Below, in pieces: positions 4,348 through 31,910 of a stretch of 32,000 nucleotides of DNA. The position numbers and the translations under genes are program-made. Under the pieces are notes generated by a model. It was not told the origin of the DNA. It ran no database searches and saw only the letters and a list, made by a program, of their open reading frames with translations. The DNA comes from Nostoc punctiforme PCC 73102 (GTDB taxonomy: Bacteria; Cyanobacteriota; Cyanobacteriia; Cyanobacteriales; Nostocaceae). The stretch covers positions 660,001 to 692,000 of the forward strand of contig NC_010628.1 of the NCBI RefSeq assembly GCF_000020025.1, in the 5' to 3' direction. The first letter of the stretch is position 1. Every line of letters begins with the position of its first letter.

Positions 4348-4675
4348 AACTTTTTGTGTCAATTTAAGGTAAGAACAATAACAGGTAATTTTACCTCTAA
4401 AATCTGGATTTTAAATTTTCACATAAAATATTTAACAGCATTTATTTTTGTCTATCTGCAAACGGCAAAATCTATAGGTTTTAAACCGCTTACTATGAAT
4501 CAGGCTTACTTATTGCTGTTATGCAAAATATCCATATTTGTAAGATTTTTTCACTGATAGTCAAATTCTCATGGGGAAATTACGTCGTCAAGGGATTTGT
4601 AGAGACACTTGATACAGAAGGTGTGCGATCGCATCATAATAAAGAAATATTAAGCAGATTCTCAGAAAACTCTCA

Positions 4676-5353
4676 ATGAGCCAGACTACCTTAAATTTAG
4701 TTGCAATATCTATCTTTCTCATGACCCTATCGGTACTGCTGGGGCCATTCTTGAATTTATCGCCAGCAGTACCAGCACTTGCAACCTTCGCTATCTTAGG
4801 CATAGCTACATTAGATAGTTTTAGCTTGCAAGGCAAGGGTGGTACTATTTTTTTAGATTGGATTGCTGGTTTTTCAAGTGAACACCGCGATCGCATCGTC
4901 CACCACGAAGCAGGACATTTTTTGGTTGCTTACCTACTAGGGATTCCCGTTACCGGCTACACACTCAGCGCTTGGGAAGCCTGGAAACAGGGGCAACCTG
5001 GGCAAGGCGGTGTCAGCTTTGATGATGGCGAATTAGCTTCTCAATTAGAAGTGGGTAAAATCAGTGCCCAAATGCTAGACCGCTACTGTACTGTTTGGAT
5101 GGCGGGTATTGCTGCTGAAACCCTAGTTTTTGATAATGCTGAGGGTGGATCTGATGATAAAAGCAAACTGATTGGAGTCTTGACAGTTTTGGGCTTTTCT
5201 GAATCAGTTTATCAACAGAAACTGCGGTTTCATGCTCTCCAAGCAAAAACCCTACTACAAGAAAATTGGTCTAGTTACGAAGCTTTAGTTAATGCTATGC
5301 GACAACGTGCTTCGGTGGAAGATTGTCATGCTGAGTTAGGAGTGGGGGAGTAG
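4676..5353 (+). CDS. Membrane protein with an FtsH-type (M41-like) zinc-peptidase domain only, no AAA+ module
   Basis: 225 aa with an ATG start. Two N-terminal hydrophobic helices (LVAISIFLMTLSVLLGPFL and ALATFAILGIATL). HEXXH motif in VHHEAGHFLVAY. The downstream MAGIAAETLVFDNAEGGSDDKSKL resembles the FtsH GGRAAEE...G.NDL region. Confidence 0.7.
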   Translation: MSQTTLNLVAISIFLMTLSVLLGPFLNLSPAVPALATFAILGIATLDSFSLQGKGGTIFLDWIAGFSSEHRDRIVHHEAGHFLVAYLLGIPVTGYTLSAWEAWKQGQPGQGGVSFDDGELASQLEVGKISAQMLDRYCTVWMAGIAAETLVFDNAEGGSDDKSKLIGVLTVLGFSESVYQQKLRFHALQAKTLLQENWSSYEALVNAMRQRASVEDCHAELGVGE

Positions 5354-5371
5354 AGGAGTAAGGGAAGAATT

Positions 5372-5392
5372 AATGACAAGTGACAAATGACA
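5372..5392. repeat. STRR-like tandem heptamers (AATGACA AGTGACA AATGACA)
   Basis: Three consecutive 7-mers read directly, plus a degenerate fourth, between convergent stop codons at 5353 and 5395. Confidence 0.6.
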
Positions 5393-5394
5393 AA

Positions 5395-6417
5395 TTATGA
5401 AGAAACAACTTTCAAATGTGAAACATGAGATAGGTAGTTTGAGTGAATAACCCGATTACGCCCAGCATTTTTAGCCTGTAAGAGACATTGATCGGCACGA
5501 TTCAGCAGACTCTCTCCTTGTTCATCATCATCAGCTTGCAGACTAGCTGTGCCCAGACTAATGGTGATATTAATAGTTAGTTTATTACTGAGTGCAAATG
5601 GTTCATCGCTAACTACGCGATTAAGACGACGGGCTACTAATAGTGCTTCCTCATCGGTAGTGTTAGCCAGAAGAATCACAAATTCTTCGCCACCATAGCG
5701 GAATGCTGTGTCTTGACAGCGCAGATTGTGTCGCAAACGCTGACATAATATTTGCAAAATGCGATCGCCTACTAAATGCCCGTGAGTATCATTAACTTTC
5801 TTGAAATGATCTACATCCAGAATAATCAAACTCAGGGAAGTTTTTTGAGTTCTAGCTCTTTGAATTTGCCTGGGTAAGTCCCATTCTAAAGCACGACGAT
5901 TATTTAATTCTGTCAACGAATCGGCTAAGGCGATCGCAGATAACATATCATTTGTCCGAATCAAATCTCGATATTTTTGTGCTTTTCGCAAGCCAACAGT
6001 CAATTGAGCAAGTATTAATCCATGATTGGCAGTCAACTCTGCTAAATTATGGCCTGTTTTCTCATCAATAAGATGCCAAATATAAGCATCTGCTCCTTGC
6101 TTTAGGGCCGCAGCACTCATCTCTAATTCTCTATGCCAACCCTTATTTCTATCAGTAAGCTGTTGGAAACGATCCTCGAATAAAATACAATATATCCAAG
6201 ATAATTTTGTCTGCTCTTTCAACCAATTGCACAGTTCCATACTGCCATCCAAGCTAGCCTGCACAAGCATTATATCGGGGGGCGCTATTTTAATCCGCGA
6301 CACTGCTTGATTCAAATTGTCTATAACTTCTACACTAAAAGCAGCCGCATAACGGATCTGATCTGGAAGTGTGGCGATAAAATTATTTTTCCCAAAGATC
6401 AGAATAGAAATATTCAT
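5395..6417 (-). CDS. Diguanylate cyclase (GGDEF) with a degenerate N-terminal receiver-like domain
   Basis: 340 aa with an ATG start. Active site RYGGEEF, with an RxxD I-site (RCQD) five residues upstream. In the N-terminal REC-like fold the acidic pocket is replaced (ILIFGKNN instead of DD) and the phospho-acceptor position reads LVQ instead of LLD. Confidence 0.85.
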   Translation of the reverse strand: MNISILIFGKNNFIATLPDQIRYAAAFSVEVIDNLNQAVSRIKIAPPDIMLVQASLDGSMELCNWLKEQTKLSWIYCILFEDRFQQLTDRNKGWHRELEMSAAALKQGADAYIWHLIDEKTGHNLAELTANHGLILAQLTVGLRKAQKYRDLIRTNDMLSAIALADSLTELNNRRALEWDLPRQIQRARTQKTSLSLIILDVDHFKKVNDTHGHLVGDRILQILCQRLRHNLRCQDTAFRYGGEEFVILLANTTDEEALLVARRLNRVVSDEPFALSNKLTINITISLGTASLQADDDEQGESLLNRADQCLLQAKNAGRNRVIHSNYLSHVSHLKVVSS

Positions 6418-6823
6418 TGCTTTATTATTTATCCTATTTAAATTTTAAAGAGATTAAGTTGAGTAACTTACTACTATTCTTGCCTAATACTAAATATTAT
6501 CTTTTAGGCTGAGTTAGATTTCTGGTTATATACTTTTATTTACGCCGAATCTAGAATATTTTCTCAATTTTTATCTCCTTTCAAGGGTTTATATTTACTC
6601 CTAGCATTTCTGAAATATTCACTTCTGACAACTAATGTCTTCTTTACACTATGTTTTTCAAACAGTAAAAATACTGAATAATATTGAGACATATAAAAAC
6701 TATTCATGTGCTTTCTTAAGTGTTTTTTAACTGACTAAATTACGAAAATCAAGAGTTTGGAATAACCTCCACATTAGATAAATGAATTTCTTTTTACAAA
6801 GAAAAATAAAGAAATTATAAAGT

Positions 6824-6871
6824 TTTTAATTCAACGATCAAAATCTAAATTTTAATCGTTGAATTAAAAAT
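6824..6871. repeat. 48-bp AT-rich near-perfect palindrome of unknown function
   Basis: TTTTTAATTCAACGAT (6824-6839) is the exact reverse complement of ATCGTTGAATTAAAAA (6856-6871). The inner 16 nt also pair, apart from two mismatched positions. Confidence 0.9.
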
Positions 6872-7600
6872 GTTATTTTTCATAGGGGACTTCAGCCTTT
6901 TGGTTGATAACCTAGGCTTTAATCAAGTATTAAGGTAGGAGTGGAATTGCAAAAGCAATGCAAACTACATAGACAGCAAAGCTCCCTCCTGCTATGGACA
7001 GGAGCTTTCTGGCACTAACAAACTCTATAATTACAGAGCGAATTTGTCGGGCGAAAAATCCCCAAATTAAGTGAGACGTGAAACTTGGGTTCACAATGTG
7101 TTAGCAGGATAAACAAAATATCTCTGCCTACGCACTTTATCTGTCTTTCTTGATTTAACTCACATCTTTTGTTTAATTGATTGCAACATCATAAATTTCG
7201 AAAAAAGAAGCTAAATAAAAAGTTTGATGTCAAAACCTGCCCCTAATGTGGGTAAATCAGTGAAATTCCGCTCTTAGAAAAGTAAGCAATATTTGATACT
7301 TTCAGTTTTAGTGCCATTTGCTACCCTGGTATGGGAATTTTAAACTATTTCTTAAGGATTAATCTTAAAGACTAAAATTAAGATATCTAGGACGGGCGCA
7401 GATGCAGCACATCCTGCCAGAGCCAGATAATAGTCTAAAAGCATCCTCATCACTGCGTATAGCTCACAGACTTGTACAATTTGCTGGCGGTAATATGAAA
7501 CAAAATGCAAGAATATATAAAGCTATTTATGAAAATACACTTACCCAGTGCCGCTACGCCCAAGTCTAGAAGAGTCTAAAGTCTCAAGTTAAAAACACCT

Positions 7601-10243
7601 ATGTCTTCAAATCCCCAGTACCTAAGCGGTAACGAAATTCGCAACACATTCCTCAACTTCTTTGCCCAACGGAGTCACCAAATCCTCCCAAGTGCGTCTC
7701 TCGTGCCAGAAGATCCAACCGTACTGCTGACGATCGCGGGGATGCTACCATTTAAGCCGATATTCTTGGGGCAGAGGACACCAGAATTTAAGCGGGCTAC
7801 GACTTCACAAAAGTGTATCCGTACCAACGACATCGAAAATGTCGGACGCACTAAACGGCATCACACCTTTTTTGAGATGCTGGGTAATTTCAGCTTTGGT
7901 GATTATTTTAAAGAACAAGCGATCGCTTGGGGCTGGGAAATCTCCACACAAGTCTTTGGCTTTTCTCCCCAAAATCTGGTTGTCAGCGTTTTTGAAGATG
8001 ATGATGAAGCCTTTGCTATCTGGCGCGATCAAATCGGTGTGCCGGTAGCCAGAATTAAACGCTTGGGCGAAGATGATAACTTTTGGGTATCTGGCCCGAC
8101 TGGCCCTTGTGGCCCTTGTTCAGAAATATATTACGACTTCCACCCAGAACGCGGTGACGAAAATATCGATTTAGAAGACGATTCCCGGTTCATCGAGTTT
8201 TACAACCTCGTGTTCATGCAATATAACCGAGATGTTTTAGGCAATTTAACGCCACTGCAAAACAAGAACATCGACACGGGTATGGGTTTGGAGAGAATGG
8301 CGCAAATCCTCCAAAAAGTGCCCAATAACTACGAAACTGACCTGATTTTCCCAATTATTCAAACAGCCGCTCAAATTGCTGGTATTGACTACCATAGCAG
8401 TGATGAAAAAACCAAAGTCTCCCTAAAAGTCATTGGCGATCACGTTCGTTCTGTTGTCCACATGATCGCTGATGAAATCCGTGCTTCTAACGTGGGAAGG
8501 GGTTATGTGCTGCGGCGATTGATTCGGCGTGTGGTGCGTCATGGGCGATTAATTGGGATTTCTGGCGAATTTACTACCCAAGTTGCCGAATCTGCGATCG
8601 CTCTTTCCGAATCAGCTTACCCCAATGTGCGCCAACGGGAAGCAGCAATAAAAGCTGAGTTGCAACGAGAAGAATCCAATTTCCTCAGAACTCTCGATAG
8701 AGGCGAAAAACTCTTAGAAGAAATTATCCAAGAGGTGAAACAGCAAGGAAGCACTCAAATTAGCGGTGAAAGTGCATTTACCCTTTATGACACCTACGGA
8801 TTTCCCCTCGAACTTACTCAAGAAGTTGCCGAAGAAAATAATCTCACAGTTGATGCTGAGGGATTTGAGGCACAAATGGAAATTCAAAAAGGACGTGGTA
8901 GAGATGCACATGAAACCATCGATTTAACTGTCCAAGGTTCCCTCGACAAGCTAGCAGAACACATCCAAGTCACCGAGTTTTTAGGCTACACCCAATCGGC
9001 GGCGACGGCAATAATCGAAGCGATTTTGCTAGAAGGTGTTTCTCAAGAAGAAGCAGAAGCGGGGACACAGGTACAAATAGTCCTTGATAAAACGCCATTT
9101 TATGCTGAATCTGGCGGACAAATCGGCGATCGCGGTTATATCTCTGGTGATGGTATTGTTGTTCGAGTGGAAGACGTTAAAAAAGAATCTGATTTCTTTG
9201 TTCACTTCGGACGCATCGAACGCGGTACACTGCGCGTAGGCGATCGCGTCACCGCCCAAATCGATCCGGCTTGTCGCCGTCGCGCCCAAGCTAACCATAC
9301 CGCAACGCACCTGTTGCAAGCGGCGTTGAAAAAAATTGTTGATGATGGCATATCTCAAGCTGGTTCCCTAGTTTCCTTTGATAGATTGCGCTTTGACTTC
9401 AACTGTCCCCGCGCTTTGACAGCAGAAGAAGTGCAACAAGTTGAAGAACAGGTGAACAGTTGGATTGCGGAAGCCCACGCTGCAAAGGTGGAAGTCTTAC
9501 CTTTAGCCGAGGCGAAAGCTAAGGGCGCTGTTGCCATGTTCGGCGAGAAATACGGCGATGAAGTTCGCGTGATTGACTTCCCTAACGTATCAATGGAACT
9601 CTGCGGTGGCACTCATGTCAGCAATACTGCCGAAATTGGCGTGTTTAAGATTATCTCGGAAGCTGGCGTGGCTTCTGGGGTGCGGCGCATTGAAGCTGTT
9701 TCGGGGCCAGCAATCCTAGATTATCTCAACCTGCGGGATAAAGTAGTTAAAGATTTGAGCGATCGCTTTAAAGTGAAACCCGAAGAATTACCAGACAGAA
9801 TTACAAGTCTGCAAAGCGAACTCAGAAATAGTCAGAAGGAATTGGAAACCTTGAAGGTACAATTAGCGATCGCTAAATCTGACAGCTTGCTACAAACAGC
9901 CGAAACTGTAGGCGATCATAAAATTATCGTTGCCCAATTAGAAAATGTCGATCCAGAATCATTGAAAACCGCAGCCGAACGCCTGTTACAAAAAATCGGT
10001 AACGGTGCAGTGGTGCTAGGTTCTGTTCCCGAAGCCGATAAAGTTAGCATAGTTGCAGCTTTTAGTCCAGAAGTTAACAAAAAAGGTTTACAGGCTGGTA
10101 AATTTGTTGGTGCGATCGCTAAAATCTGCGGTGGTGGTGGTGGTGGAAGACCGAACTTAGCCCAAGCTGGCGGACGCGATGCGAGTAAATTACCAGATGC
10201 GTTGGGACAAGCAGAAAGTGATTTAAAGTCCGCATTGGCTTAA
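7601..10243 (+). CDS. alaS: Alanine--tRNA ligase
   Basis: 880 aa. Class II AlaRS signatures: [18 protein letters not shown] and [18 protein letters not shown]. Editing-domain HxxxH ([12 protein letters not shown]) and CGGTHV. C-terminal [15 protein letters not shown] (DHHA1-type). Confidence 0.98.
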
Positions 10244-10326
10244 CCCACATCTGACAATCCCCAGTTCGTTGCTATGCTATTAGCTTTGGAGTTATATAGC
10301 AATACTAAATCATTCGTGAAAAATTA

Positions 10327-10357
10327 GATCCCCGACTTTTCAAATAAGTCGGGGATC
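10327..10357. terminator. 12-bp perfect palindromic hairpin, a possible terminator (the U-run is present only for minus-strand transcripts)
   Basis: GATCCCCGACTT (10327-10338) pairs with AAGTCGGGGATC (10346-10357), with a 7-nt loop. AAAAATTA lies upstream on the + strand, so the minus-strand RNA would end in a U-rich tract. It lies 84 nt after the alaS stop. Confidence 0.45.
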
Positions 10358-10380
10358 TGGACATAAATCTTTAAGCGGAC

Positions 10381-10538
10381 ATGATATAACTCAATACAGT
10401 TCAGTTAAGCATTTCTTTATTCTCTCAGTGCCCTCTGCGTCTCTGTGGTAGCCTGCGGCAAGCCGCTCCGCGTCTACGTAAAAAAAATTGACTTTGACAA
10501 AGAGTTTTAGCTTTAACTGAACCGTATTGTGATATGAC
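10381..10538. mobile_element. MITE-like non-autonomous element (~158 bp) with imperfect ~28-bp terminal inverted repeats
   Basis: The left end ATGATATAACTCAATACAGTTCAGTTAAGC matches the reverse complement of the right end, GTCATATCACAATACGGTTCAGTTAAAGC. The core CAATAC(A/G)GTTCAGTTA(A)AGC is nearly identical. The interior carries the GC-rich motif family seen in other intergenic gaps (GCGTCTCTG...CCGCGTCTACG). There is no ORF. Confidence 0.5.
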
Positions 10539-22181: not shown

Positions 22182-23228
<1,047 letters not shown>

Positions 23229-23245
23229 TTAATCTACGATCGAGT

Positions 23246-23329
23246 CTGCTATTGTTCGTCGCTGACCTGTTTCATTTAGTCCACGGGCTTGTCTTGAGTT
23301 CTGAATAGCGATATGCATCATGTCCGTGG
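23246..23329 (-). pseudogene. Relic of a cupin gene 3' end (frameshifted, with an internal stop)
   Basis: Aligns at nucleotide level with the 3' end of the intact cupin (30336-30420). It also shares the 23-nt identity CTGCTATTGTTCGTCGCTGACCT with the second relic at 26540-26562. The expected reading ...HIAIQ...KPVD*MKQVSDEQ* is broken. Confidence 0.6.
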
Positions 23330-23358: not shown

Positions 23359-24195
23359 CTAGAACGAACCGTCCGTTGATTTCGATAGCTCTTCATGGGC
23401 GTGCGTCGCCTGCAACCGTTCCTCGACAGCCGGCGCGATCGTCGCAAGGGCATCACTTCCGGCAACGAACAGCTTCGGCGGATTCTCCATCCCGGCGATT
23501 TTGACCAGAGCATCGCCCAACTTTGCCGGGTCACCCTGCTGCGTGCCGTTGTAGACCGACCAAGTGTCCTGGACGTTGCCCTCGGCGGCATAGTCTTCGA
23601 TGGCGTTGCTGGGCCATCTGACATTCTGGTCGTCCAGAAGGTCCGTGCGAAAGAAGCCAGGTTCGACGAGCGTCATCTTGATGCCGAACCCCTCGACCTC
23701 GACCGCGACCGACAGTGAGATGCCTTCGACCGCGAACTTCGATGCAGCGTAGGCAGCACAGTGCTTAAACCCGACAACGCCAGCAACGGAGCTAATGTTG
23801 ATGATGTGGCCCGATCGCTGCTGACGCATAATCGGCAGCACGGCACGCATGACGTACACCACACCATAGAAGTTTGTCGCGAACTGGCGTTCGATGTCGG
23901 TCGTGGTCATCTCTTCAAAATTACCAAGCAGGCTGTAGCCCGCATTGTTAACTAAAACGTCGATGCGACCGAACCGATTCACCGCCTCCTCGATGGCTGT
24001 TTTCGCCTGTACCTCGTCGGAAACGTCCAACTGGACAAATGCAAGATTCTCGCTTGCAACATCGCGCAAGGCATTACGCACTTTATCGAGGTTTCGGCCA
24101 GTCGCGACTACACGGTCACCGGACTGCAATGCTGCCTTGGCGGTTCCGGTTCCGATCCCACTGCCAGCGCCTGTGATAAACCAGACTTTGCTCAT
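23359..24195 (-). CDS. Classical short-chain dehydrogenase/reductase
   Basis: 278 aa. ATG start with AAGGAAA upstream. TGAGSGIG, NNAG, catalytic S...YAASK. Confidence 0.9.
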   Translation of the reverse strand: MSKVWFITGAGSGIGTGTAKAALQSGDRVVATGRNLDKVRNALRDVASENLAFVQLDVSDEVQAKTAIEEAVNRFGRIDVLVNNAGYSLLGNFEEMTTTDIERQFATNFYGVVYVMRAVLPIMRQQRSGHIINISSVAGVVGFKHCAAYAASKFAVEGISLSVAVEVEGFGIKMTLVEPGFFRTDLLDDQNVRWPSNAIEDYAAEGNVQDTWSVYNGTQQGDPAKLGDALVKIAGMENPPKLFVAGSDALATIAPAVEERLQATHAHEELSKSTDGSF

Positions 24196-24267: not shown

Positions 24268-25059
24268 TTACTCCGTCGCCACTTCATTCAGGCATTTCAA
24301 TACATTCAGGGTTCGGGGATATCCCACCCAGGGCAACAATTGTGTAATCAGATCCAGCAGTATGTCTTTGCCGTTTCCGACATTCAGGTTGCCTTGAATG
24401 TGCCACTTTATCTGTGATTCAACCCCGCCCAGAGCAATGAGGATGGACAGTGTGATGAGTTCCCTGACACTTATGTCTACGCCATTGCGGGTATAATAAT
24501 CGCCAAAGCAATTGGCAGACAGAAACCTTTGAATGTGTAGCTGGTCTTTGGGCGATCGCTCATACATTTGATCGATCGTCTCGCCGAACACAGCTTTCTG
24601 TATTGCCAGCCCTTTGTCGTAGCGTGTTTCCGGGCTGGTGGTCGATTGCCCTTCCAACGGTAATTGAATGCCCCTGCTGGACATTACTTCATTAGTGGCA
24701 TGAACGAAGTCAAATGCTTTCGCCATACCTACGTAAGGTACCGACTGATACAGGATCTCCTTGATTTCAACCGGCGTTACTCCGACATTGAGCGCAGCGC
24801 CCACCATAACTCTGTATTCGCTTACTGCCTGGTTGCCGATGATAGACGCTAGAATCAGCATGATCCTTGTCTTTGTATCCAGCTTGCTCTCAGCAATTAC
24901 TTCGTCGAAGGCGAAGTTGTCAAAGACTTCGATCAGTTCAGGATCGGTTACTTTCAGGGTCGATTTGTGGTTTGGAAAGAGTTCCTCATGGTTTTTATGT
25001 GCCGCTTCACTTATCCTCACAGAGGATTGAGTTTTGTCCTTCTGCGGTGTATTTGTCAT
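24268..25059 (-). CDS. Carboxymuconolactone decarboxylase (CMD/AhpD-like) family protein, two CMD repeats
   Basis: The ORF extends to 25065, but AAGGAG lies 6 nt upstream of the second ATG (25059). Repeats: LDTKTRIMLILASIIGNQ...VTPVEIKEILYQSVPYVGMAKAFDF and SVRELITLSILIALGG...DLITQLLPWVGYPRTLN. Confidence 0.85.
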   Translation of the reverse strand: MTNTPQKDKTQSSVRISEAAHKNHEELFPNHKSTLKVTDPELIEVFDNFAFDEVIAESKLDTKTRIMLILASIIGNQAVSEYRVMVGAALNVGVTPVEIKEILYQSVPYVGMAKAFDFVHATNEVMSSRGIQLPLEGQSTTSPETRYDKGLAIQKAVFGETIDQMYERSPKDQLHIQRFLSANCFGDYYTRNGVDISVRELITLSILIALGGVESQIKWHIQGNLNVGNGKDILLDLITQLLPWVGYPRTLNVLKCLNEVATE

Positions 25060-25105
25060 CCACATCTCCTTTTTTGAGTCACAGTTCTATGGTTGGCAAT
25101 TCCGT

Positions 25106-25394
25106 CTATAATCCCGTTCGCTTTTCCAACGCTTCTGGATAGCGATCGCCTTCCACTGTAATTTGCGCCAATGCCTCGTCGATGCTCTTCAATTCGTCCT
25201 GCGTCAGCTCGATGTCCGCTGCCACAATGTTTTCTTCCAGGCGGCTCAATTTAGTTGTGCCGGGAATGGGCACCACGGCTTGGAGCAGGGAGATACTTTC
25301 TTGCTTGTCGAGGGTATGGCTGTAGGCATAGTTCAACGCCCAGCCCGATCGCCGAGACTTCCAGATTACTGTTTCCAAGTTTGCGCTTTTGCAT
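25106..25394 (-). pseudogene. Aldo/keto reductase relic with a large internal deletion and a frameshift
   Basis: It keeps the RBS (AAGGAG), the ATG (25394) and the 5' coding end. Positions 25338-25380 are identical over 43 nt to 23133-23175 of the intact AKR. The sequence then jumps from about codon 45 (...KQESISLLQA) to the C-terminal ...[17 protein letters not shown]...DRYPEALEKRTGL. The 5' and 3' parts are in different frames. Confidence 0.75.
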
Positions 25395-25420
25395 TGGCAC
25401 TCCTTCGAGATTCCGCTCGG

Positions 25421-26479
25421 TTATTCAGATTTCAGGGATGCCATATCAATCACAAAGCGGTATTTCACATCAGACTTGAGCAGGCGATCGTAGGCTTCGT
25501 TGACCTTCTGGATAGGAATGACTTCGACATCGGCGGTGATGTTATGCTTGCCGCAAAAGTCGAGCATCTCTTGGGTTTCGGGGATGCCGCCGATGTTTGA
25601 GCCGGAGAGACTGCGACGGGCCATGATCAGGCTGAATGCCGCGACATCCAGGGGCTTCTCCGGTGCGCCGACAAGGGTGATATTGCCGTCGAGGCGGAGT
25701 AGGTTGAGATAGGCGTTGATGTCGTGCTTGGCAGAAACGGTGTCGAGGATGAAATCGAAGCTGCCAGCGTGTTTCTGCATCTCGTCGGCATTGCGGGAGA
25801 CGACCACTTCGTCGGCACCCAGGCGGAGCGCGTCTTCCTTTTTATCGGGTGAGGTGGTGAAGACGACAACGTGGGCACCAAACGCATGAGCAAACTTCAC
25901 GCCCATGTGCCCCAGTCCGCCAAGACCGACTAGGCCAACTTTCTTGCCTTCAGTGACACCCCAGTGACGCATCGGTGAATAGGTTGTGATTCCAGCACAA
26001 AGAAGTGGTGCAGCCCCGGCGAGATCGAGGTTGGAGGGAACACGCAGCACGAAGCGTTCATCAACGACAATGCTATCGGAGTAGCCCCCATAAGTAACGC
26101 CACCAAGGTGCTTGTCTGGAGAGTTGAAGGTGAGGATTTGATTCGGGCAGAAATTCTCAAGGCCAGCTTTGCAATTAAGACAGGTACCATCCGAATCGAC
26201 CAAGCAACCAACCGCCGCGAGGTCGCCGGGCTTGTACTTGGTCACTGCCGAGCCAACCTCAGTGACACGGCCCACGATCTCATGACCGGGGACAATCGGA
26301 TAAACGGTGGAAATTATGCTGCTCCACTCGTTACGCACTGAATGGAGGTCGGAGTGGCAGATGCCGCAGAAGAGAATTTCGATCTGAACATCGTGTTCGG
26401 TTGGATCGCGCCGTGCGATCTGGGTGGAGGACATCGGTGATGTTGCACTGGCTGCGGAATAGGCTTTTGTGTTGTACAT
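25421..26479 (-). CDS. Zn-dependent NAD(P) alcohol dehydrogenase (cinnamyl-ADH / YahK-like)
   Basis: The tracked ORF starts at a TTG (26494). The ATG at 26479 (MYNTKAYSA) has GGAG upstream. GICHSDLH, GHEIVGRV, structural-Zn cysteines CLVDSDGTCLNCKAGLENFC, GLVGLGGLGHMG. Confidence 0.9.
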   Translation of the reverse strand: MYNTKAYSAASATSPMSSTQIARRDPTEHDVQIEILFCGICHSDLHSVRNEWSSIISTVYPIVPGHEIVGRVTEVGSAVTKYKPGDLAAVGCLVDSDGTCLNCKAGLENFCPNQILTFNSPDKHLGGVTYGGYSDSIVVDERFVLRVPSNLDLAGAAPLLCAGITTYSPMRHWGVTEGKKVGLVGLGGLGHMGVKFAHAFGAHVVVFTTSPDKKEDALRLGADEVVVSRNADEMQKHAGSFDFILDTVSAKHDINAYLNLLRLDGNITLVGAPEKPLDVAAFSLIMARRSLSGSNIGGIPETQEMLDFCGKHNITADVEVIPIQKVNEAYDRLLKSDVKYRFVIDMASLKSE

Positions 26480-26542
26480 AAATTGATGCTCCAATCTGGA
26501 AGATAAGCTGGTTTCCTTCTACTCGCTCTTGAATCTGTCCTG

Positions 26543-26706
26543 CTATTGTTCGTCGCTGACCTTTTCCATCCAGTCCACGGGCTTGCCGTCGAGTACCTCC
26601 TGAGTGGCGATATGAGTCATCGCCGTTGACGGTGAAGGTGGCGATGGCGACAATGCTTTGTTGTAGCGCACCAAGCTCGAACGTAACACTACCACCAGCA
26701 CTATCC
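26543..26706 (-). pseudogene. Mosaic relic: cupin 5' piece, CMD-gene 5' piece and cupin 3' end
   Basis: Read on the minus strand directly after the SDR stop. [10 protein letters not shown] matches the cupin [27 protein letters not shown] matches the CMD protein RQQSIVTIAAFTANGD and is similar at nucleotide level to 28129-28180. After a frame change, [27 protein letters not shown] matches the cupin [27 protein letters not shown]. Confidence 0.6.
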
Positions 26707-27450
26707 TTACCAAGGCTGCGTGGTTGGGCCAATCGTAAATTCGTTCACGTTTGTGTCTTCTGGCTGGTCAATCGCAAACGCCACAACATTGGCTACTCGA
26801 TCGGGTGAGATGCCATATTGCTCATACAACTCTGTCATTTTTTCAGCCATATCTTGGTTGGTAATCTGATTTAACAACTCAGTGTTAATTGCCGCAGGAT
26901 AAATTGTCGCAGTACGAATCTTAGTCCCCTCTTGAGCAGACTCCATGCGTAGAACTTCCATGAAATCGCGCACGAACCATTTCGTCCCACCATACACTGC
27001 ACCACCTGGATAAGCTTTTAACCCAGCAACCGATGAAGTTGTGATAACATGCCCAGACTTTTGGCTAATAAACGTTGGTAACACAGCAGCGATACCATTG
27101 AGTACACCCTTGATATTGATATCAACTGTTTGATTCCATTCATCCGTTTTCAATGCAGAGAGTGGAGAATTGGGCATTATGCCAGCGTTCAAGAAAATAA
27201 CATCGATGCCTCCAAATCTTTCCTTGGCAAGGTTGACGATTTCAGCGCTATCAGATGGGTTAACCACATCCATCACTTGATAGACTGCTTGTCCGCCATC
27301 TCTTTGAATTTCATCAACCAGTTGTCTCAATTGGCGATCGCGTCGCGCACCCAATACGACTTTAGCGCCTTTGCTTGCAAGCAATTTCGCACTTGCTTCA
27401 CCAATCCCTGATGATGCGCCGGTAATAATTACAACTTTGTCTTTAATCAT
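26707..27450 (-). CDS. Classical short-chain dehydrogenase/reductase
   Basis: 247 aa. ATG start with GAGGAA upstream. [13 protein letters not shown]...YGGTK. Confidence 0.9.
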
Positions 27451-27547: not shown

Positions 27548-28267
27548 CTATTTATTGCTTAAAACCTTATTCAATACTTCAGCAGCATTATCGGCTTCAG
27601 GCTTGCCGACTTTGGACTTGAGAACGGATACGAGACTGTTCATCTGTGCCTTGGTCAGTCCAGTATTCATGCCGATTCTAAAATGTGCTTGCAGTTGGGG
27701 GTTGACACCTTTCATACTCGAAAGAGCTGCAATGGTCGCAATCTCCCTACTTTGAAAGTCCAGGTTGTCGCGCCCGAAGATGTCTGCGAACAGGTGACTT
27801 TTCAAAAACTGATCGATGGCGGGAGCAAAAGTATAGATTTCCCCAGCAACCGGACTTCCTGAAAGGCGCGTCTGAATTTCTGTTCCAAGTTCGAGACGAC
27901 TTTTATCGGTAGAAAGTGGGCTTGCTTCCTTACCCGCTACGTCCTTAATTCCCTTGGCCTCCCTTGCTTTCATAACGCTCATAAAGACGTTGAGGGCGTT
28001 TAGACTGCGCGGAAATCCTGCATAAGCATACAGTTGAACCAAAACCTCCTTGATCTCATTTACCGTCAAGCCAGCATCAAGCCCTTCATTTAGAGCCGCA
28101 GACAAATCTTCTAGATCGCCGTTGGCGGTAAAGGCGGCGATGGTGACGATGCTTTGTTGTCGTGCATCTAAAGTTTGATCGTTGTTCATTGTTTGTGCAT
28201 CCGACATACATGAAAGGCTAAATATCATTACAGACACCAGTGCTAAGAACACGATGAGCTTTTTCAT
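27548..28267 (-). CDS. Exported carboxymuconolactone decarboxylase family protein (two CMD repeats with a signal peptide)
   Basis: The tracked ORF starts at a TTG (28309). The ATG at 28267 has AAGGAGG 8 nt upstream. N-terminus MKKLIVFLALVSVMIFSLSCMSDAQT. Repeats: LTVNEIKEVLVQLYAYAGFPRSLNAL and SREIATIAALSSMKGVNPQLQAHFRIGMNTGLT. Confidence 0.85.
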   Translation of the reverse strand: MKKLIVFLALVSVMIFSLSCMSDAQTMNNDQTLDARQQSIVTIAAFTANGDLEDLSAALNEGLDAGLTVNEIKEVLVQLYAYAGFPRSLNALNVFMSVMKAREAKGIKDVAGKEASPLSTDKSRLELGTEIQTRLSGSPVAGEIYTFAPAIDQFLKSHLFADIFGRDNLDFQSREIATIAALSSMKGVNPQLQAHFRIGMNTGLTKAQMNSLVSVLKSKVGKPEADNAAEVLNKVLSNK

Positions 28268-28443
28268 CAAAACTGCCTCCTTATTGCCACTGCTACAGAG
28301 TCGTGGCAAACGGTTCTTTTAGGTTTCACGCCTTTGAGAGGATGGAACGAGCGCATAAGCTGACAAGGATCGTCAGCGCCGTCTGGCGCGATCTCCACCA
28401 TTTGTCGCGTTCACTGCAACGGTGTCATGCTTAGTGCCATTTA

Positions 28444-29217
28444 TCACTGCACCGTTTGGCCACCGTCGATGATCAGGGCGTGCCCGACGACAAAGGAGGA
28501 CGCATCCGAACACAGCCAGACGACGGCATTGGCGATTTCTTCGGGCTGCCCCATCCTTCCAATCGGCTCCTCTGAGACTACCTTTTGGCGGCCTTCGGGA
28601 GTGCCGCCGGTGAAGCGATCCATCATCGACGTGTCGATATAGCCAGGACACACGGCGTTGATGCGGATGTTCTGCGAGGCGTAGTCGAGGGCCGCCGCTT
28701 TGGTGAGGCCGATCACGCCGTGTTTTGCGGCGGTGTATGCGGCTCCGCCCTTGATGCCGATGACCCCAGCACCCGATGATGTGTTCACGATCGCGCCGCC
28801 ACCTTGCTTGAGCATTAGCGGGATTTCGTGCTTCAGGCATAGAAAGACACTCCGCAGGTCGGTGTTGACGATGCGATCCCATTCTGCCTCCTCCAGTTCC
28901 GCAGTTGCAGCTTTCTTCTGTTCAACACCAGCATTGTTAAAAGCAAAGTCCAGCCGTCCGAAAGTTTCGATGGTCTTGGAAAGAGCCGCCGTCACGTCCT
29001 CGGTTCGCGTCACATCGCACTTGACGGCAAGCACTCGTCCGCCGAGGTCTTCGATCAGGCGCACCGTTTCTTGATTGCCCTGTTCTGAAACATCGGCAAC
29101 CACGACATTAGCGCCCTCACGGGCAAACGCCAGCGCCGTAGCTCGACCGATGCCGTTTGCTGCTCCGGTTACAAATGCAACCTTTCCTGTGTAATTTCCA
29201 TTCTCGTTCTTTGTCAT
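28444..29217 (-). CDS. Classical short-chain dehydrogenase/reductase (glucose-1-dehydrogenase / 3-oxoacyl reductase-like)
   Basis: 257 aa. ATG start with AAGGAG upstream. TGAANGIG, NNAG, S...YTAAKHGVIGLTK, and PGYIDT. Confidence 0.9.
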   Translation of the reverse strand: MTKNENGNYTGKVAFVTGAANGIGRATALAFAREGANVVVADVSEQGNQETVRLIEDLGGRVLAVKCDVTRTEDVTAALSKTIETFGRLDFAFNNAGVEQKKAATAELEEAEWDRIVNTDLRSVFLCLKHEIPLMLKQGGGAIVNTSSGAGVIGIKGGAAYTAAKHGVIGLTKAAALDYASQNIRINAVCPGYIDTSMMDRFTGGTPEGRQKVVSEEPIGRMGQPEEIANAVVWLCSDASSFVVGHALIIDGGQTVQ

Positions 29218-29306
29218 TTTTTACTCCTTACATTGCTCATTAGGGAAGTCTTGATTGGGATTTTCACGATCTATTGCCGGGTAGTGGAGCCAAGGACAAG
29301 CTCGAA

Positions 29307-29702
29307 TCACTTCGCGCCAAGCAAAACTGGATCGGTCTCGACAAGTTTGAGGGACTTAACCATTTGCTGGGTATTGGTCTTGTATTTTTTGAAATGAGGC
29401 GATTCGATGTGTGCTTTGTACGCATCCACATCAGCATACGTCTCAAGAATTCTTATGCTGGTGGGGCTATCCTTTAGAGAGACGGCGTATAAGGTCAACA
29501 CCCCCGGCTCCAGGCGAATGGAAGCCTCGATTTCCTCCCTAAGTTCAGCTTTATAATTTTCTAACAGAGCTGGATCGATCTCAATTTCCGATAGTCGTAC
29601 CATGCGTCCTTGGGTCTGTTCGGCAGGGGCACGCCCGCACGCGCACAACAGACATAACGTCAGCACCGATGCACCAAGGATTGGAAATCGTCTAGCTTTC
29701 AT
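29307..29702 (-). CDS. ABM (antibiotic-biosynthesis-monooxygenase / quinol monooxygenase fold) protein with a signal peptide, possibly a lipoprotein
   Basis: 131 aa. ATG start with AGGAGG upstream. N-terminus MKARRFPILGASVLTLCLLCACGRAP. The ferredoxin-like ABM core is VRLSEIEIDPALLENYKAELREEI...LTLYAVS...IRILETYADVDAYKAHIESPHFKKY. Confidence 0.8.
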   Translation of the reverse strand: MKARRFPILGASVLTLCLLCACGRAPAEQTQGRMVRLSEIEIDPALLENYKAELREEIEASIRLEPGVLTLYAVSLKDSPTSIRILETYADVDAYKAHIESPHFKKYKTNTQQMVKSLKLVETDPVLLGAK

Positions 29703-29771
29703 GTTGACCTCCTGGTTGGTTGTTGAAGATGCCCATGCATCTGCGATCGCTTCCGCCAGTAAAACGTCCCA

Positions 29772-30320
29772 TCATTTCGGCGCGATAGATGTTTGATCGA
29801 GTTCAATCGTCACTTTTAAAGAGCCTGGCAGATTGAAAGCTTCTAGGTCGGAATCGATCTTGCCTATGACAATGATGCCGGGATCGGGGATTTCCTCTCC
29901 ACCGTGGCGATAATAAATAGCCACATCAGGGCCGGGAGACCAGTAAATGACCTCTCCAACTTCATAGGTTTTGGTTCGCTCTCCCTCCTCCGAAATTGCT
30001 CTCGGCAGGTGGGCAAACTTTTCTCTTCCAAACAAATCGTTCATCGTCAGCGTTAATGGCAGCAGGGAAACAAAATCCTGAGTGGTTTTGCTGTCGATTA
30101 AAGCGGCTGTAACAACTTTGTCTTTGACCTTGATGTTTATCTTCATACTGTCTGCCTGCTTGATTGATATTTCAGTCGGCATCTTCAACGAGGCACTGCT
30201 AGTCATACTGTTGTCGGCACGGCAGGCTGAGTTACTCAGGGACATCACTAGGGCGAGAACCAAAATCAGTATTCTCTGCTGGCAGTTTTTCCCCTTGACG
30301 GGAAACCATTTCAACAGCAC
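29772..30320 (-). CDS. Cyclophilin-like fold protein with a signal peptide
   Basis: 182 aa. The GTG start overlaps the cupin stop (TAGTG), and GGAGGAA lies 7 nt upstream. N-terminus KGKNCQQRILILVLALVMSLSNSAC. Family-like core: IKVKDKVVTAALIDSKTTQDFVSLLPLTLTMNDLFGREKFAHLP...YEVGEVIYWSPGPDVAIYY. Confidence 0.7.
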   Translation of the reverse strand: MLLKWFPVKGKNCQQRILILVLALVMSLSNSACRADNSMTSSASLKMPTEISIKQADSMKINIKVKDKVVTAALIDSKTTQDFVSLLPLTLTMNDLFGREKFAHLPRAISEEGERTKTYEVGEVIYWSPGPDVAIYYRHGGEEIPDPGIIVIGKIDSDLEAFNLPGSLKVTIELDQTSIAPK

Positions 30321-30721
30321 TAAGATATTCCTCCATACTGCTTGTCGCTGACATGCTCCATCCAGTCCACAGGCTTACCGTCGAGCCATTCCTGAATAGC
30401 AATGTGCGTCATCGCCGTGGTTGCTGTAGCACCGTGCCAATGCTTCTCACCTAGCGAGATCCAGATTGTGTCCCCCGGTCGAATTTGCTCGATCGAGCCG
30501 CCCCAGCGCTGTACTAAACCACAGCCAGCCGTCACAATCAAGGTTTGTCCTAATGGGTGCGTGTGCCATGCTGTCCGAGCGCCAGGCTCAAACGTGACAC
30601 TGGCTCCAGACGTGCGTGCTGGATCGTGCGCCTCGAATAGGGGATCAATGCGGACAGTGCCCGTAAAATAATCAGCCGGTCCTTTGGCAGAAGGCTGTGA
30701 GCCACTTCTTTTAATGTCCAT
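30320..30721 (-). CDS. Small cupin protein of the type often annotated '(R)-mandelonitrile lyase-like cupin'
   Basis: The ORF is open to 30838, but the family-typical N-terminus [29 protein letters not shown] starts at the ATG at 30721, with AAGGAA upstream. Cupin motifs are [14 protein letters not shown] and GEKHWHGA. Confidence 0.85.
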
Positions 30722-30929
30722 TTTCTTAATTCCTTTACTTGATGCAATTTTGGTGGCTAGCAGGCAAGTCTCTTGCCGAATCAAAACTGAGTTTTCTCTT
30801 AAATAAAAATCCAGAATGCTTAAATAAGGCGAAATCATTTTTCATTGCTTTAGCTTCATTCTAAGAATCCTGAAGAACAAGTAATAGGACGATCGTCTAA
30901 GATCGTTGTACAATTCTGCAAACTTAGAA
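30722..30929. promoter_or_regulatory. Divergent control region between the cupin operon and the AraC-family gene (inferred)
   Basis: 208-bp AT-rich gap. Palindromes GGCAAGtctCTTGCC (30763-30777) and GACGATCGTC (30888-30897). GATCGT is repeated 10 bp apart (30891 and 30901). TTGTACAA at 30906-30913. No promoter can be proven by eye. Confidence 0.4.
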
Positions 30930-31910
30930 ATGAACGCTGCTAAAACGAGTGAGAAGTCCAATATCGATTTAATGAACGACCCGCAGGCAAAGCGCCAGGT
31001 AGACAGAGCGCAAGCCAACAGAGACGAACTCAAAGAGCTGATTGCACAGGCGATTCCTCATGATGGAACGATTGAGCCGCTTAAAGGTTTGCACTTCAAC
31101 CGCTCCTCCTCGCCTTCGGAATGCGTTCATAGTGTCTCTATCCCTGCGTTTTGTGCGATCGCTCAGGGCAGCAAAGAAGTTCTTTTGGGTAGCGAGCGCT
31201 ATCAGTACGACCCGATGCATTATCTGCTTGCTACGGTCGAACTGCCAATTGTCAGTCAAATTTTGGAAGCGTCCAAGGCGCAACCGTACCTTAGTCTTCG
31301 CCTCGATCTTGACCCTACTCTCGTTGGCTCAGTGATGGTCGAGGCAGGGTATCCCTCGCGCAGGCGTGCTGATGTGAAAGCGATTGACGTAAGTCCATTG
31401 AATGCAAATCTGTTGGATGCTGTAGTGCGGCTCGTCAGGCTTTTAGATTCCCCTGCTGAAGCTCATGTTCTCGCACCACTGATTAAGCGGGAAATCATTT
31501 ACCGACTCCTGATGGGAGAGCAAGGTAATCGGCTCCGTCATATTGCAGTTCTGGGTGGCTACACTTACCACATCGCCAGAGCCGTCGAGCGACTTCGTAA
31601 AGACTTTAACGAACCGATCAAGATTGAAAGCATCGCCCGAGAGCTGGGAATGAGTGTTTCGGGCTTCCACCATCACTTCAAGTCTGTCACTGCCATGAGT
31701 CCCTTGCAGTACCAAAAGCAACTGCGACTCCAGGAGGCTCGCCGTCTGATGCTGGGGGAAAAGCTTGATGCTACCAGTGCTGCCTACCGCGTGGGTTATG
31801 ATGATGCCTCGCATTTCAACCGGGAGTACAAGCGGCTTTTTGGTGCGCCACCGATGCGCGATGTGGAGCGGCTGCGAGAAGCTGCTAGGGAGACTGCTAG
31901 TTCAATTTGA
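30930..31910 (+). CDS. AraC-family transcriptional regulator with an AraC_N-type ligand-binding domain
   Basis: The tracked ORF starts at a TTG (30906). ATG candidates are 30930 and 30972. N-domain YQYDPMHYLLATVELPIVSQILEASKAQPYLSLRLDLD. C-terminal double HTH IARELGMSVSGFHHHFKSVTAMSPLQYQKQLRLQEARRLM...VGYDDASHFNREYKRLFGAPP. Confidence 0.9.
   Translation: MNAAKTSEKSNIDLMNDPQAKRQVDRAQANRDELKELIAQAIPHDGTIEPLKGLHFNRSSSPSECVHSVSIPAFCAIAQGSKEVLLGSERYQYDPMHYLLATVELPIVSQILEASKAQPYLSLRLDLDPTLVGSVMVEAGYPSRRRADVKAIDVSPLNANLLDAVVRLVRLLDSPAEAHVLAPLIKREIIYRLLMGEQGNRLRHIAVLGGYTYHIARAVERLRKDFNEPIKIESIARELGMSVSGFHHHFKSVTAMSPLQYQKQLRLQEARRLMLGEKLDATSAAYRVGYDDASHFNREYKRLFGAPPMRDVERLREAARETASSI

Follow-up and report, generated by a model that had tools for sequence, protein, structure and literature searches.

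In Escherichia coli, the AraC-type activator YqhC is encoded divergently from yqhD-dkgA and activates these genes on exposure to glyoxal, furfural, and other aldehydes (PMC5297802, PMC6115493). Aldehydes are also bound by GtHNL, a cupin of Granulicella tundricola with hydroxynitrile lyase (HNL) activity in which the aldehyde coordinates Mn(II), and HNL activity in microbial cupins has been described as initially unexpected (PMC13556127). Bacterial cupin HNLs are known as biocatalysts and their natural role is undescribed, as is the function of the cyclophilin-like proteins of family PF18050. Here we analyze a gene island of Nostoc punctiforme PCC 73102 in which homologs of YqhC and GtHNL and a PF18050 protein are encoded side by side. 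The stretch of DNA that was analyzed, hereafter the window, is 32,000 nucleotides long (assembly GCF_000020025.1, contig NC_010628.1, positions 660,001 to 692,000 of the forward strand), and coordinates given without a locus name are positions within it. The island takes up 22.2-31.9 kb of the window and consists of 11 minus-strand genes or gene remnants opposite a single plus-strand regulator. On balance, we think it probable that this island is a YqhC-type regulon for carbonyl and electrophile stress that acts in 2 compartments, the cytoplasm and the cell envelope.

The regulator carries Pfam domain AraC_N (PF06719, 7.3e-54) followed by HTH_18 (2.7e-22), the same 2 Pfam domains as E. coli YqhC (35% identity over 247 aa, E 3e-48). 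Its open reading frame (ORF) opens with TTG at 30906; an ATG at 30930 (MNAAKTSEK...) is conserved in relatives, a 326-aa gene is called on identical contigs, and ATG 30930 is the likely start. The gene lies on the plus strand, divergent from the minus-strand row of cupin, short-chain dehydrogenase/reductase (SDR), alcohol dehydrogenase (ADH), and aldo-keto reductase (AKR) genes. For comparison, one genome per species was scanned, which gave 80 loci, all found through relatives of the cyclophilin-like protein, and the window proteins were compared with their ORFs by BLAST. These loci comprise 48 from cyanobacteria and 32 from other bacteria (Verrucomicrobiota, Acidobacteriota, delta- and alphaproteobacterial metagenome-assembled genomes [MAGs], Planctomycetes, Gemmatimonadales, and others). 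Of 65 related loci, 40 share the divergent layout of the window. When 30 cyanobacterial intergenic regions were aligned, the spacer between regulator and cupin showed long blocks with at least 80% identity, and within the window spacer lies a palindrome, ACGATC-N6-GATCGT at 30889-30906, which we infer to be a candidate operator. This palindrome also resembles the cyanobacterial HIP1 core.

The features of the island are given below from the regulator toward the left-hand border. For the part between 27548 and 30721, a first-pass annotation made from the letters alone already had the domain calls and gene positions right, all on the minus strand.

30930..31910, plus strand: YqhC-like AraC_N/HTH_18 regulator, 326 aa (Pfam; YqhC homology).
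30722..30929, no strand: divergent regulatory region, the regulator-cupin spacer, 208 nt (conserved blocks, palindrome).
30320..30721, minus strand: cytoplasmic Mn-cupin, GtHNL orthologue by sequence, 133 aa, no signal peptide (Cupin_2, NF049940).
29772..30320, minus strand: cyclophilin-like protein with a lipoprotein-type signal, 182 aa (PF18050).
29307..29702, minus strand: ABM-domain protein with a lipobox signal, 131 aa (PF03992).
28444..29217, minus strand: classical SDR, cytoplasmic, 257 aa (adh_short_C2, PRK06172).
27548..28267, minus strand: exported two-domain CMD-family protein, signal peptidase I type, 239 aa (PF02627, 2 stretches).
26707..27450, minus strand: second SDR, cytoplasmic, 247 aa (Pfam adh_short 6.4e-55).
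26540..26670, minus strand: decayed cupin 3' end and CMD 5' end, between SDR and ADH (direct repeats).
25421..26479, minus strand: Zn-ADH of the YahK/cinnamyl-ADH group, 352 aa as called, in an ORF that opens at 26494 (ADH_N, ADH_zinc_N).
25106..25395, minus strand: AKR remnant, 5' end joined to 3' end (Aldo_ket_red, profile positions 243-290 only).
24268..25065, minus strand: second CMD-family protein, cytoplasmic, of a different subfamily (Pfam CMD 4.6e-27).
23359..24195, minus strand: third SDR, cytoplasmic, 278 aa (Pfam adh_short 6.6e-55).
22182..23189, minus strand: intact AKR, 335 aa, the last gene of the island (Aldo_ket_red 6e-79).

The association of these genes extends well beyond Nostoc. 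Among the 48 cyanobacterial loci, an AraC_N regulator is present in 42, a full-length cupin in 38, and one or more of SDR, ADH, and AKR in 47; the corresponding counts for the 32 noncyanobacterial loci are 14, 15, and 21. Where upstream sequence was available (65 loci), the cupin stood directly upstream of the cyclophilin-like gene in 33 and an AraC_N gene lay within 4 kb in 46. Proteins of the cluster are 75-95% identical between genera. Downstream of the regulator, cupin, and cyclophilin-like genes, those for the reductases, CMD, and ABM are shuffled between genomes. Of the 54 loci with enough flanking sequence, 4 contain ABM, 10 the exported CMD, and 3 both, the last being Nostoc lichen-cyanobiont MAGs closely related to the window. 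In 3 Nostoc loci with the order cyclophilin-like-ABM-CMD (L021, L024, and L026), the cyclophilin-like gene has no signal peptide. Independent contexts found through the CMD and ABM relatives in other phyla include L085 (Syntrophobacteraceae) and L088 (Acidobacteria), where an AraC_N gene accompanies AKR and cupin/CMD genes, and esterases occur there too. Judged from these gene orders, the conserved core is the divergent AraC_N regulator, the cupin, and the cyclophilin-like protein, and the reductases, CMD, and ABM are interchangeable accessory cassettes.

The cupin scores 198.5 bits against the NCBIfam equivalog model NF049940, '(R)-mandelonitrile lyase' (cut-off 140), and aligns gap-free with GtHNL (PDB 4BIF, 4UXA, 8OZ8) at 78.3% identity across 129 residues. 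By the list of first- and second-sphere residues of GtHNL given in PMC13556127, it retains the Mn ligands H53, H55, Q59, H94, and H96, the base H106, and 7 second-sphere residues (13 of 13 relative to 4BIF). By these sequence comparisons, the cupin is a close orthologue of GtHNL.

Related loci contain the GtHNL-like cupin in 2 forms, a cytoplasmic form as in the window and a form with a Sec signal (e.g., MKLLATTIVSFSLLTLALAHAGQTQ...). The Sec-signal form occurs in 23 of the 48 cyanobacterial loci, 8 of which contain both. Cupins with Tat signals (RRTFLK and RRTFLT) are encoded at L031 3047-3586 (a Chthoniobacterales MAG) and L068 6550-7086 (a Planctomycete MAG), which is consistent with export of the folded, metal-loaded enzyme, and the exported-form cupins keep every Mn ligand. 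The cupin is also found fused to CMD. At L076 10473-11678 (Pyrinomonadaceae), the order is signal-cupin-CMD, with the 2 parts joined exactly at the CMD signal cleavage site, and a cupin-CMD fusion is present at L088 11472-12350 (Acidobacteria). Further fusions are of the signal-CMD-cupin type (P0229) and the signal-cyclophilin-like-CMD type (P0043 and P0067); these 3 come from short contigs (964-2,746 bp) and are possible assembly or gene-calling artifacts. The natural fusions would predict that the CMD touches both the cupin and the cyclophilin-like protein. Related clusters additionally encode an exported dienelactone-hydrolase-like alpha/beta-hydrolase of ~355 aa. At L064 8256-8672, we also noted a 4-oxalocrotonate-tautomerase-like ORF with an in-frame Tat-like RRSFLKK upstream, a signal that may be a relic. 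4-oxalocrotonate tautomerase requires an N-terminal proline, and this ORF was left out of the exported set since an internal Met-Pro is its probable true start.

The second member of the core, the cyclophilin-like protein, matches PF18050 (Cyclophil_like2) with E 8.7e-30 and 103.6 bits against a gathering score of 22.7. Its gene is joined tightly to that of the cupin: the cupin stop TAG (30322-30320) and the GTG start (30320-30318) share base 30320 (TAGTG), with GGAGGAA 7 nt upstream of the GTG. The codon aligned with this GTG is ATG in 29 of 35 distinct cyanobacterial sequences, and the ATG of relatives mostly overlaps the cupin stop by 1 base as well (TAATG or TGATG), with GAAGGAA before it. 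The N-terminus has a hydrophobic core at residues 17-28 and a cysteine at position 33 (30222-30224), and the folded domain begins at Met59. Relatives down to 40-60% identity keep the hydrophobic core and a near-invariant Cys33 (YSAC or HAGC) with an ADN motif after it. Differences among relatives within codons 2-36 fall on 4097 third, 3536 first, and 2419 second positions. Position -3 of Cys33 is N, Y, or H, so that the PROSITE lipobox pattern PS51257 ([LVI][ASTVI][GAS]C) is unmatched despite the n- and h-regions. From its sequence, the protein is probably a lipoprotein with a noncanonical lipobox.

Met59 is invariant and sits at the start of the folded domain; Asp95, Glu100, Lys101, and Tyr126 are invariant as well. 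Signal-less genes that start at Met59 are found in some Nostoc genomes (L021, L024, L026, and L082, ~9971-10387), and in other loci the gene is split near residue 59 by insertions of 0.1-1.5 kb (L033 1950-2847, L055 9310-10354, and L080 8103-10354). The residue-59 junction resembles a hot spot of recombination or insertion, and an internal start at Met59 may give a short cytoplasmic isoform. The RefSeq start of the gene on plasmid p1 of Leptolyngbya boryana is also a shorter one (149 aa). Across the family, which counts 2,026 representative clusters, 33 of 59 full-length representatives have hydrophobic N-terminal extensions and 19 have none.

An AlphaFold2 model of the mature cyclophilin-like domain built from 92 sequences reached a pLDDT of 90.4; a full-length model from 26 sequences (pLDDT 54) was discarded. 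A Foldseek search with the mature-domain model returned TM1367/AF2241 proteins at TM 0.72-0.76, followed by the barrel of KslB at ~0.70, and the similarity to 1ZX8 and 2KA0 (TM 0.74-0.76) assigns the model to the cyclophilin-like beta-barrel fold. A classical peptidyl-prolyl isomerase was considered and rejected, as there is no match to the Pfam Pro_isomerase family and the model reaches TM 0.51-0.59 at 8-14% identity to CypA and CypB. KslB is a beta-carboline synthase that condenses tryptophan with alpha-ketoglutarate or succinic semialdehyde (PMC12012969), that is, an amine with an aldehyde or keto acid, and thus performs carbonyl chemistry. We treat the modeled similarity as a fold-level lead and not as membership in the KslB group.

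The ABM protein (Pfam ABM 8.6e-11) has AGGAGG 6 nt upstream of its only usable ATG and matches PS51257 at Cys22, as do 56 of 120 relatives. These relatives are ~133 aa long, mostly metagenome-derived with a few named Acidobacteria, and keep an LCLLCAC-type lipobox. From its signal, the ABM protein is a predicted lipoprotein. The exported CMD (Pfam CMD 9.9e-24) has AAGGAGG 8 nt upstream of ATG 28267 and a predicted cleavage site ..SDA|QT after residue 24. Its 120 best relatives (~241 aa, 100% query coverage; Syntrophobacteria, Desulfobacterales, Geobacterales, Pelosinus) retain a signal ending in ..SEA|QT in 108 cases, across phyla, which indicates cleavage by signal peptidase I. The window sequence also matches PS51257 at Cys20, but lipoprotein status was rejected since relatives lack that Cys and retain an AXA-type site; the CMD is thus predicted to be exported in soluble form. 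In their mature form, none of the 3 proteins (CMD, ABM, and cyclophilin-like) has a single Cys, and Pfam shows no nucleotide- or flavin-binding domain in them. An AhpD-type thiol peroxidase was therefore rejected for the CMD, whose mature form has no Cys and hence no CxxC, and PcaC (TIGR02425) was rejected on score (69.7 bits versus a cut-off of 155.7). The second CMD (24268..25065) has an N-terminal maximum Kyte-Doolittle value of -0.16, and its relatives have no signal either.

Export was assessed heuristically from hydropathy, charge, and PS51257, together with conservation among relatives. The highest 12-residue Kyte-Doolittle mean at the N-terminus is 3.27 for the cyclophilin-like protein, 3.23 for the CMD, and 2.51 for the ABM protein, with n-region net charges of +4, +2, and +3, respectively; the cupin (0.45), the 3 SDRs, ADH, AKR, second CMD, and AraC protein are all at or below 1.7. 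Three exported products among 6 neighboring genes would be unremarkable by chance, and the signals are deemed real because they are conserved. The conserved N-termini, together with the third-position changes, indicate that these extended N-termini are translated and act as export signals, and on this evidence we regard all 3 predicted signals as real. The first-pass annotation had assigned export signals to these 3 products and none to the cupin and SDRs, which both hydropathy and conservation in distant relatives bear out. It had also raised downstream start codons as a way in which the hydrophobic N-termini might disappear: for ABM, the sole possible downstream start, Met34, is not conserved in relatives, but for the cyclophilin-like protein the point may hold in part, given the invariant Met59 and the signal-less genes of some Nostoc. 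Its view of exported CMD, ABM, and cyclophilin-like proteins as oddities does not hold, as exported-type members form large annotated subfamilies (>7,900 matches for CMD and 2,360 for ABM, in addition to the 33 of 59 PF18050-like representatives noted above).

The remaining intact genes of the island belong largely to reductase families. The first SDR (adh_short_C2 3.6e-74; 352 bits against NCBIfam PRK06172, over the cut-off) is the commonest partner downstream of the cyclophilin-like gene and adjoins it in most cyanobacterial loci. The second SDR has 89-95% identical copies in related loci, and the third is PRK08263/PRK06180-like by NCBIfam. The best PDB match of the ADH is the E. coli NADPH aldehyde reductase YahK (1UUF, E 5e-135), of the cinnamyl-alcohol-dehydrogenase group, and its 309 bits against NCBIfam Ahr fall below the cut-off of 470. 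AKR and SDR are carbonyl-reductase families.

Several features of the island speak to its history. GC content steps from ~0.43 to ~0.57 at ~22,190, at the end of an ABC-transporter gene, and then runs near 0.50; within the island, per-gene values range from 0.44 to 0.60, which suggests cassettes of differing origin. Direct repeats D1, D2, and D5 relate the debris at 26540-26670 to 30332-30429 and 28115-28166: a copy of the cupin 3' end (26540-26637, upstream of the ADH) and a CMD 5' fragment (26619-26670) make it, by sequence, a recombination scar, and another cupin 3' end lies at 23246-23291, upstream of the AKR (repeat D2). The AKR remnant has an internal deletion, and its positions 25338-25395 are 95% identical to the start of the intact AKR (23133-23190). 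Similar cupin and CMD remnants are present in Microcoleus loci. The extra cupin 3' ends, the CMD fragment, and the deleted AKR point to an island of concatenated mobile cassettes, each originally headed by a cupin, and the debris thus suggests that the island was built by joining them.

Related clusters are carried on plasmids, namely p1 of Leptolyngbya boryana IU 594 (L090, 40314-55024) and plasmid1 of Scytonema NIES-4073 (L039). These versions are complete, with AraC, alpha/beta-hydrolase, cupin, cyclophilin-like protein, exported cupin, 2 SDRs, ADH, and AKR. RefSeq labels in the L. boryana copy are 'cupin domain-containing protein', 'cyclophilin-like fold protein', and 'SDR family oxidoreductase'. 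A group II intron reverse transcriptase gene lies near the cluster on L. boryana p1. A closely related SDR gene is found on a plasmid of a Nostoc cyanobiont. Cyanobacterial genes of the cluster are 78-89% identical to genes in Acidobacteria and in a deltaproteobacterial MAG; in the latter (L064, ~5249-10500), the ADH is 87-89% and the cupin ~79% identical to that of the window, a closeness that stems either from recent horizontal transfer or, in the case of the MAG, from binning contamination. Public assemblies contain the exact cyclophilin-like protein in 92 blocks, with unchanged gene order. As part of our favored reading, we lean toward an island that was horizontally acquired, mosaic, and mobile, and it would then clearly exemplify how cassettes pass horizontally between cyanobacteria and other phyla of the soil.

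The 22 kb that flank the island are ordinary cyanobacterial chromosome with a GC content of ~0.40 (AlaRS, DnaK, histidine kinases, an ABC exporter, and a lipoxygenase). The lipoxygenase gene (2704-4362, minus strand; Pfam Lipoxygenase 3.8e-69) is 18 kb away from the island; lipoxygenases are uncommon in bacteria, and their products break down to reactive aldehydes. The gene at 34-2601 on the plus strand encodes an 855-aa protein with both a TerB domain and a dynamin-family GTPase domain. The right-hand island border is just past the window end, where contig L001 runs on into a TPR-protein gene. A 340-aa gene beside AraC on L001 was considered as a copy of the 340-aa window ORF at 5395-6417, that is, a repeat or insertion sequence, and rejected, since the two are unrelated (TPR versus GGDEF protein). 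Rfam and tRNA scans of the whole window gave no match, no riboswitch, and no tRNA integration site.

These observations can be combined into a mechanism. A YqhC-type AraC_N activator would control the island genes from the conserved divergent promoter, and by analogy with YqhC we infer aldehydes as the inducer. The targets would be membrane-permeant reactive carbonyls and electrophiles, such as aldehydes, ketones, and quinone- or lactone-type xenobiotics. In the cytoplasm, the 3 SDRs, the YahK-like Zn-ADH, and the AKR would reduce carbonyls with NAD(P)H, and the Mn-cupin would bind or transform the carbonyl at its metal. In the envelope, which here means the periplasm or thylakoid lumen, the cyclophilin-like lipoprotein, the ABM lipoprotein, and the soluble CMD would bind or convert the same compounds, joined in relatives by the exported cupin and hydrolase. 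To our knowledge, there is no NAD(P)H in the envelope, and the exported arm would be made up of cofactor-free or metal-only proteins. The substrates and the catalytic activities of the cyclophilin-like, CMD, and ABM proteins are proposals within this scheme, which takes up the observed gene anatomy, export signals, homologies, conserved linkage, exported cupin paralogs, and fusions. A bolder proposal, which we hold only tentatively and consider doubtful, is that the YqhC-like regulator, the GtHNL-type cupin in its 2 forms, and the cyclophilin-like lipoprotein, in many cases linked or fused with an exported Cys-free CMD, constitute a so far undescribed NAD(P)H-independent carbonyl-detoxifying pathway spanning envelope and cytoplasm. 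If this were true, the physiological job of the bacterial 'hydroxynitrile lyase' cupins would be aldehyde defense, with the PF18050 cyclophilin-like family and this subfamily of CMD proteins supplying partner enzymes or binding proteins for it.

A number of points weigh against a two-compartment carbonyl-stress regulon. The known activity of GtHNL is limited to cyanohydrin cleavage and synthesis, and 'carbonyl handling' by the cupin is an extrapolation from it. Even in E. coli, direct action of aldehydes on YqhC is unclear (PMC5297802). Descent or transfer connects many of the 80 loci, so that their counts are not independent events. The gene set also varies to such a degree that the substrates of the cassettes may differ from host to host, and, given the pseudogene remnants, part of the island may be decaying. 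The export signals do not separate periplasm from thylakoid lumen. Scans for sigma-70 promoters and terminators across 22-32 kb found fewer sites than in shuffled sequence and did not inform operon structure.

Several other explanations of the island need to be weighed against these observations. The cupin over the NF049940 cut-off, with every catalytic residue of GtHNL kept, could be a true HNL that releases aldehyde and HCN, and the island would then serve to break down or salvage cyanohydrins, cyanogenic compounds, or aromatics by a route in which ADH, AKR, and SDR convert the aldehyde and the CMD, dienelactone-hydrolase, and tautomerase-type proteins process ring-derived lactones. Aromatic catabolism typically involves these 3 families, the ADH is a member of the cinnamyl/benzyl-alcohol dehydrogenase group, and the carriers are soil-, plant-, and lichen-associated cyanobacteria. 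However, neither the cluster nor the relatives examined contain a ring-cleaving or hydroxylating dioxygenase, a nitrilase, a rhodanese, or any other cyanide-detoxifying gene; transporters are absent in most relatives examined, with MFS and OprB genes in 2; the CMD is far below the PcaC cut-off; and gene content is too variable for a fixed pathway. With HNL activity in bacterial cupins itself described as unexpected (PMC13556127), we consider such a route unlikely. The name of the ABM family, given for antibiotic biosynthesis, and the KslB barrel (PMC12012969), the only enzymatic structural neighbor of the cyclophilin-like domain, bring to mind a secondary-metabolite pathway in which an alkaloid or polyketide is tailored by the ABM, SDR, and cupin proteins and a Pictet-Spenglerase-like barrel. 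This we regard as highly improbable: no polyketide synthase, nonribosomal peptide synthetase, terpene synthase, or other scaffold-forming gene is present in the window or in the related loci examined, the KslB similarity is at fold level (15-19% identity, one domain of a two-domain enzyme), and protein export and broad phylogenetic spread are unfitting for a specific pathway.

The first-pass annotation had proposed a dedicated exported trio of ABM, CMD, and cyclophilin-like proteins under an AraC_N sensor, which along with the cytoplasmic cupin and SDRs would make up a redox system in 2 compartments and in which the cupin and cyclophilin-like protein would be a functional pair. Much of its anatomy stands, since the 3 signals are real and conserved, the one-base overlap of the cupin and cyclophilin-like genes is kept in relatives, an AraC_N regulator does preside over the cluster, 2 compartments recur in relatives, and the signal-cyclophilin-like-CMD fusions join 2 of the 3 proteins. 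The co-occurrence of the trio itself, whose lack of conservation the first-pass annotation had named as grounds for refutation, is however not conserved, with 3 of the 54 well-flanked loci, all close Nostoc, containing it and 4 containing ABM at all, and the cyclophilin-like gene is signal-less in L021, L024, and L026, which have the trio order. A redox role for the exported arm finds no support in mature proteins without Cys, CxxC, or a redox cofactor domain. Nor does the overlap demonstrate a physical pair, because the window cupin and the cyclophilin-like product end in different compartments. We therefore judge a dedicated redox trio to be quite improbable. We would say the same of the view that the island has no common function and is a junk-yard of acquired, partly decayed oxidoreductase cassettes beside an AraC gene. 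The mosaic per-gene GC, the 3 kinds of gene remnants, the split or truncated cyclophilin-like genes of relatives, and the extreme variability in gene content all fit such a view, but it does not account for a regulator, promoter region, cupin, and cyclophilin-like gene kept together with a one-base overlap in dozens of genomes. The same set of families is found with AraC_N regulators in unrelated phyla, and the level of protein identity between genera, the excess of third-position change in the signal-peptide region, and the identical copies in 92 sequence-collection blocks likewise speak against such a view.

The two-compartment carbonyl-stress regulon thus remains the reading we prefer. Every island protein falls into an annotated family, with no new fold or domain. 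Our search of the available literature library returned no paper on this gene combination or on PF18050, and the conserved linkage of GtHNL-type cupin and PF18050 lipoprotein genes with a YqhC-type regulon appears to be undescribed, as do the dual cytoplasmic and exported cupin forms and the fusions to the exported Cys-free CMD. The conserved core, the YqhC homology of the regulator, the GtHNL orthology of the cupin, and the exported cupin paralogs and fusions had all been missed in the first-pass annotation. Together, they offer a first coherent, testable context for the bacterial cupin 'HNLs' and PF18050 proteins, a YqhC-type carbonyl-reductase regulon found in several phyla, and a concrete hypothesis, carbonyl defense in envelope and cytoplasm, for 4 uncharacterized and widespread protein subfamilies. 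Should this hypothesis be wrong, the region would be a variable set of detoxification genes from ordinary families.

Comparison with described systems places the individual proteins at varying distances from their relatives. The exported CMD shares with AhpD and PcaC (PF02627) the CMD fold, present in 2 stretches, and differs from them in its conserved Sec signal, the absence of CxxC, and its score below the PcaC cut-off. The closest structure to the ABM protein is that of a putative Bacteroides thetaiotaomicron ABM protein (3KKF), which matches over the whole mature domain (E 1.3e-31) in a construct that starts at the mature N-terminus; no function is assigned to 3KKF. ArqI, an ABM protein of the Pseudomonas aeruginosa glyoxal response, is encoded in an aldehyde-specific stress operon (PMC12274486). 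The ABM protein of the window is likened to it by description only, and ArqI, unlike the window protein, is cytoplasmic and LsrG-like and stands with the glyoxalase GloA2 under a LysR regulator.

The cyclophilin-like protein has the fold of the atypical cyclophilins TM1367 and AF2241 (PF04126, PF18050; 1ZX8, 2KA0, 2NNZ), and function is described for neither side of this comparison. Unlike them, the window protein has a 58-residue N-terminal extension carrying a lipoprotein-type signal and fixed genomic partners (cupin and AraC_N), and identity is ~20%. The Pictet-Spenglerase barrel of KslB/McbB (TM ~0.70, E ~2e-5) is its only structural neighbor with a known reaction; at 15-19% identity, it differs in that KslB has an extra helical domain and is a cytoplasmic biosynthetic enzyme. 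GtHNL, for its part, is described only as a biocatalyst, with no physiological role or genomic context reported, whereas the window cupin sits in a YqhC-type cluster, overlaps a cyclophilin-like gene, and has relatives that include versions with predicted Sec or Tat export and versions fused to CMD.

The nearest likeness of the locus as a whole is to yqhC/yqhD-dkgA of E. coli. Both have an AraC_N plus HTH_18 activator (35% identical) that is divergent from genes for NAD(P)H-dependent aldehyde or carbonyl reductases, an AKR among them. The E. coli locus comprises only 2 cytoplasmic reductases, of which YqhD is an iron-type ADH and not a Zn-ADH or SDR, in contrast to the island with at least 5 reductases, a Mn-cupin, 2 CMD proteins, an ABM protein, and a cyclophilin-like protein, 3 of these products being predicted to be exported. 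As far as the likeness is known here, from the genes alone, the regulator and reductase part of the Nostoc island is a variant of the yqhC-yqhD-dkgA locus.

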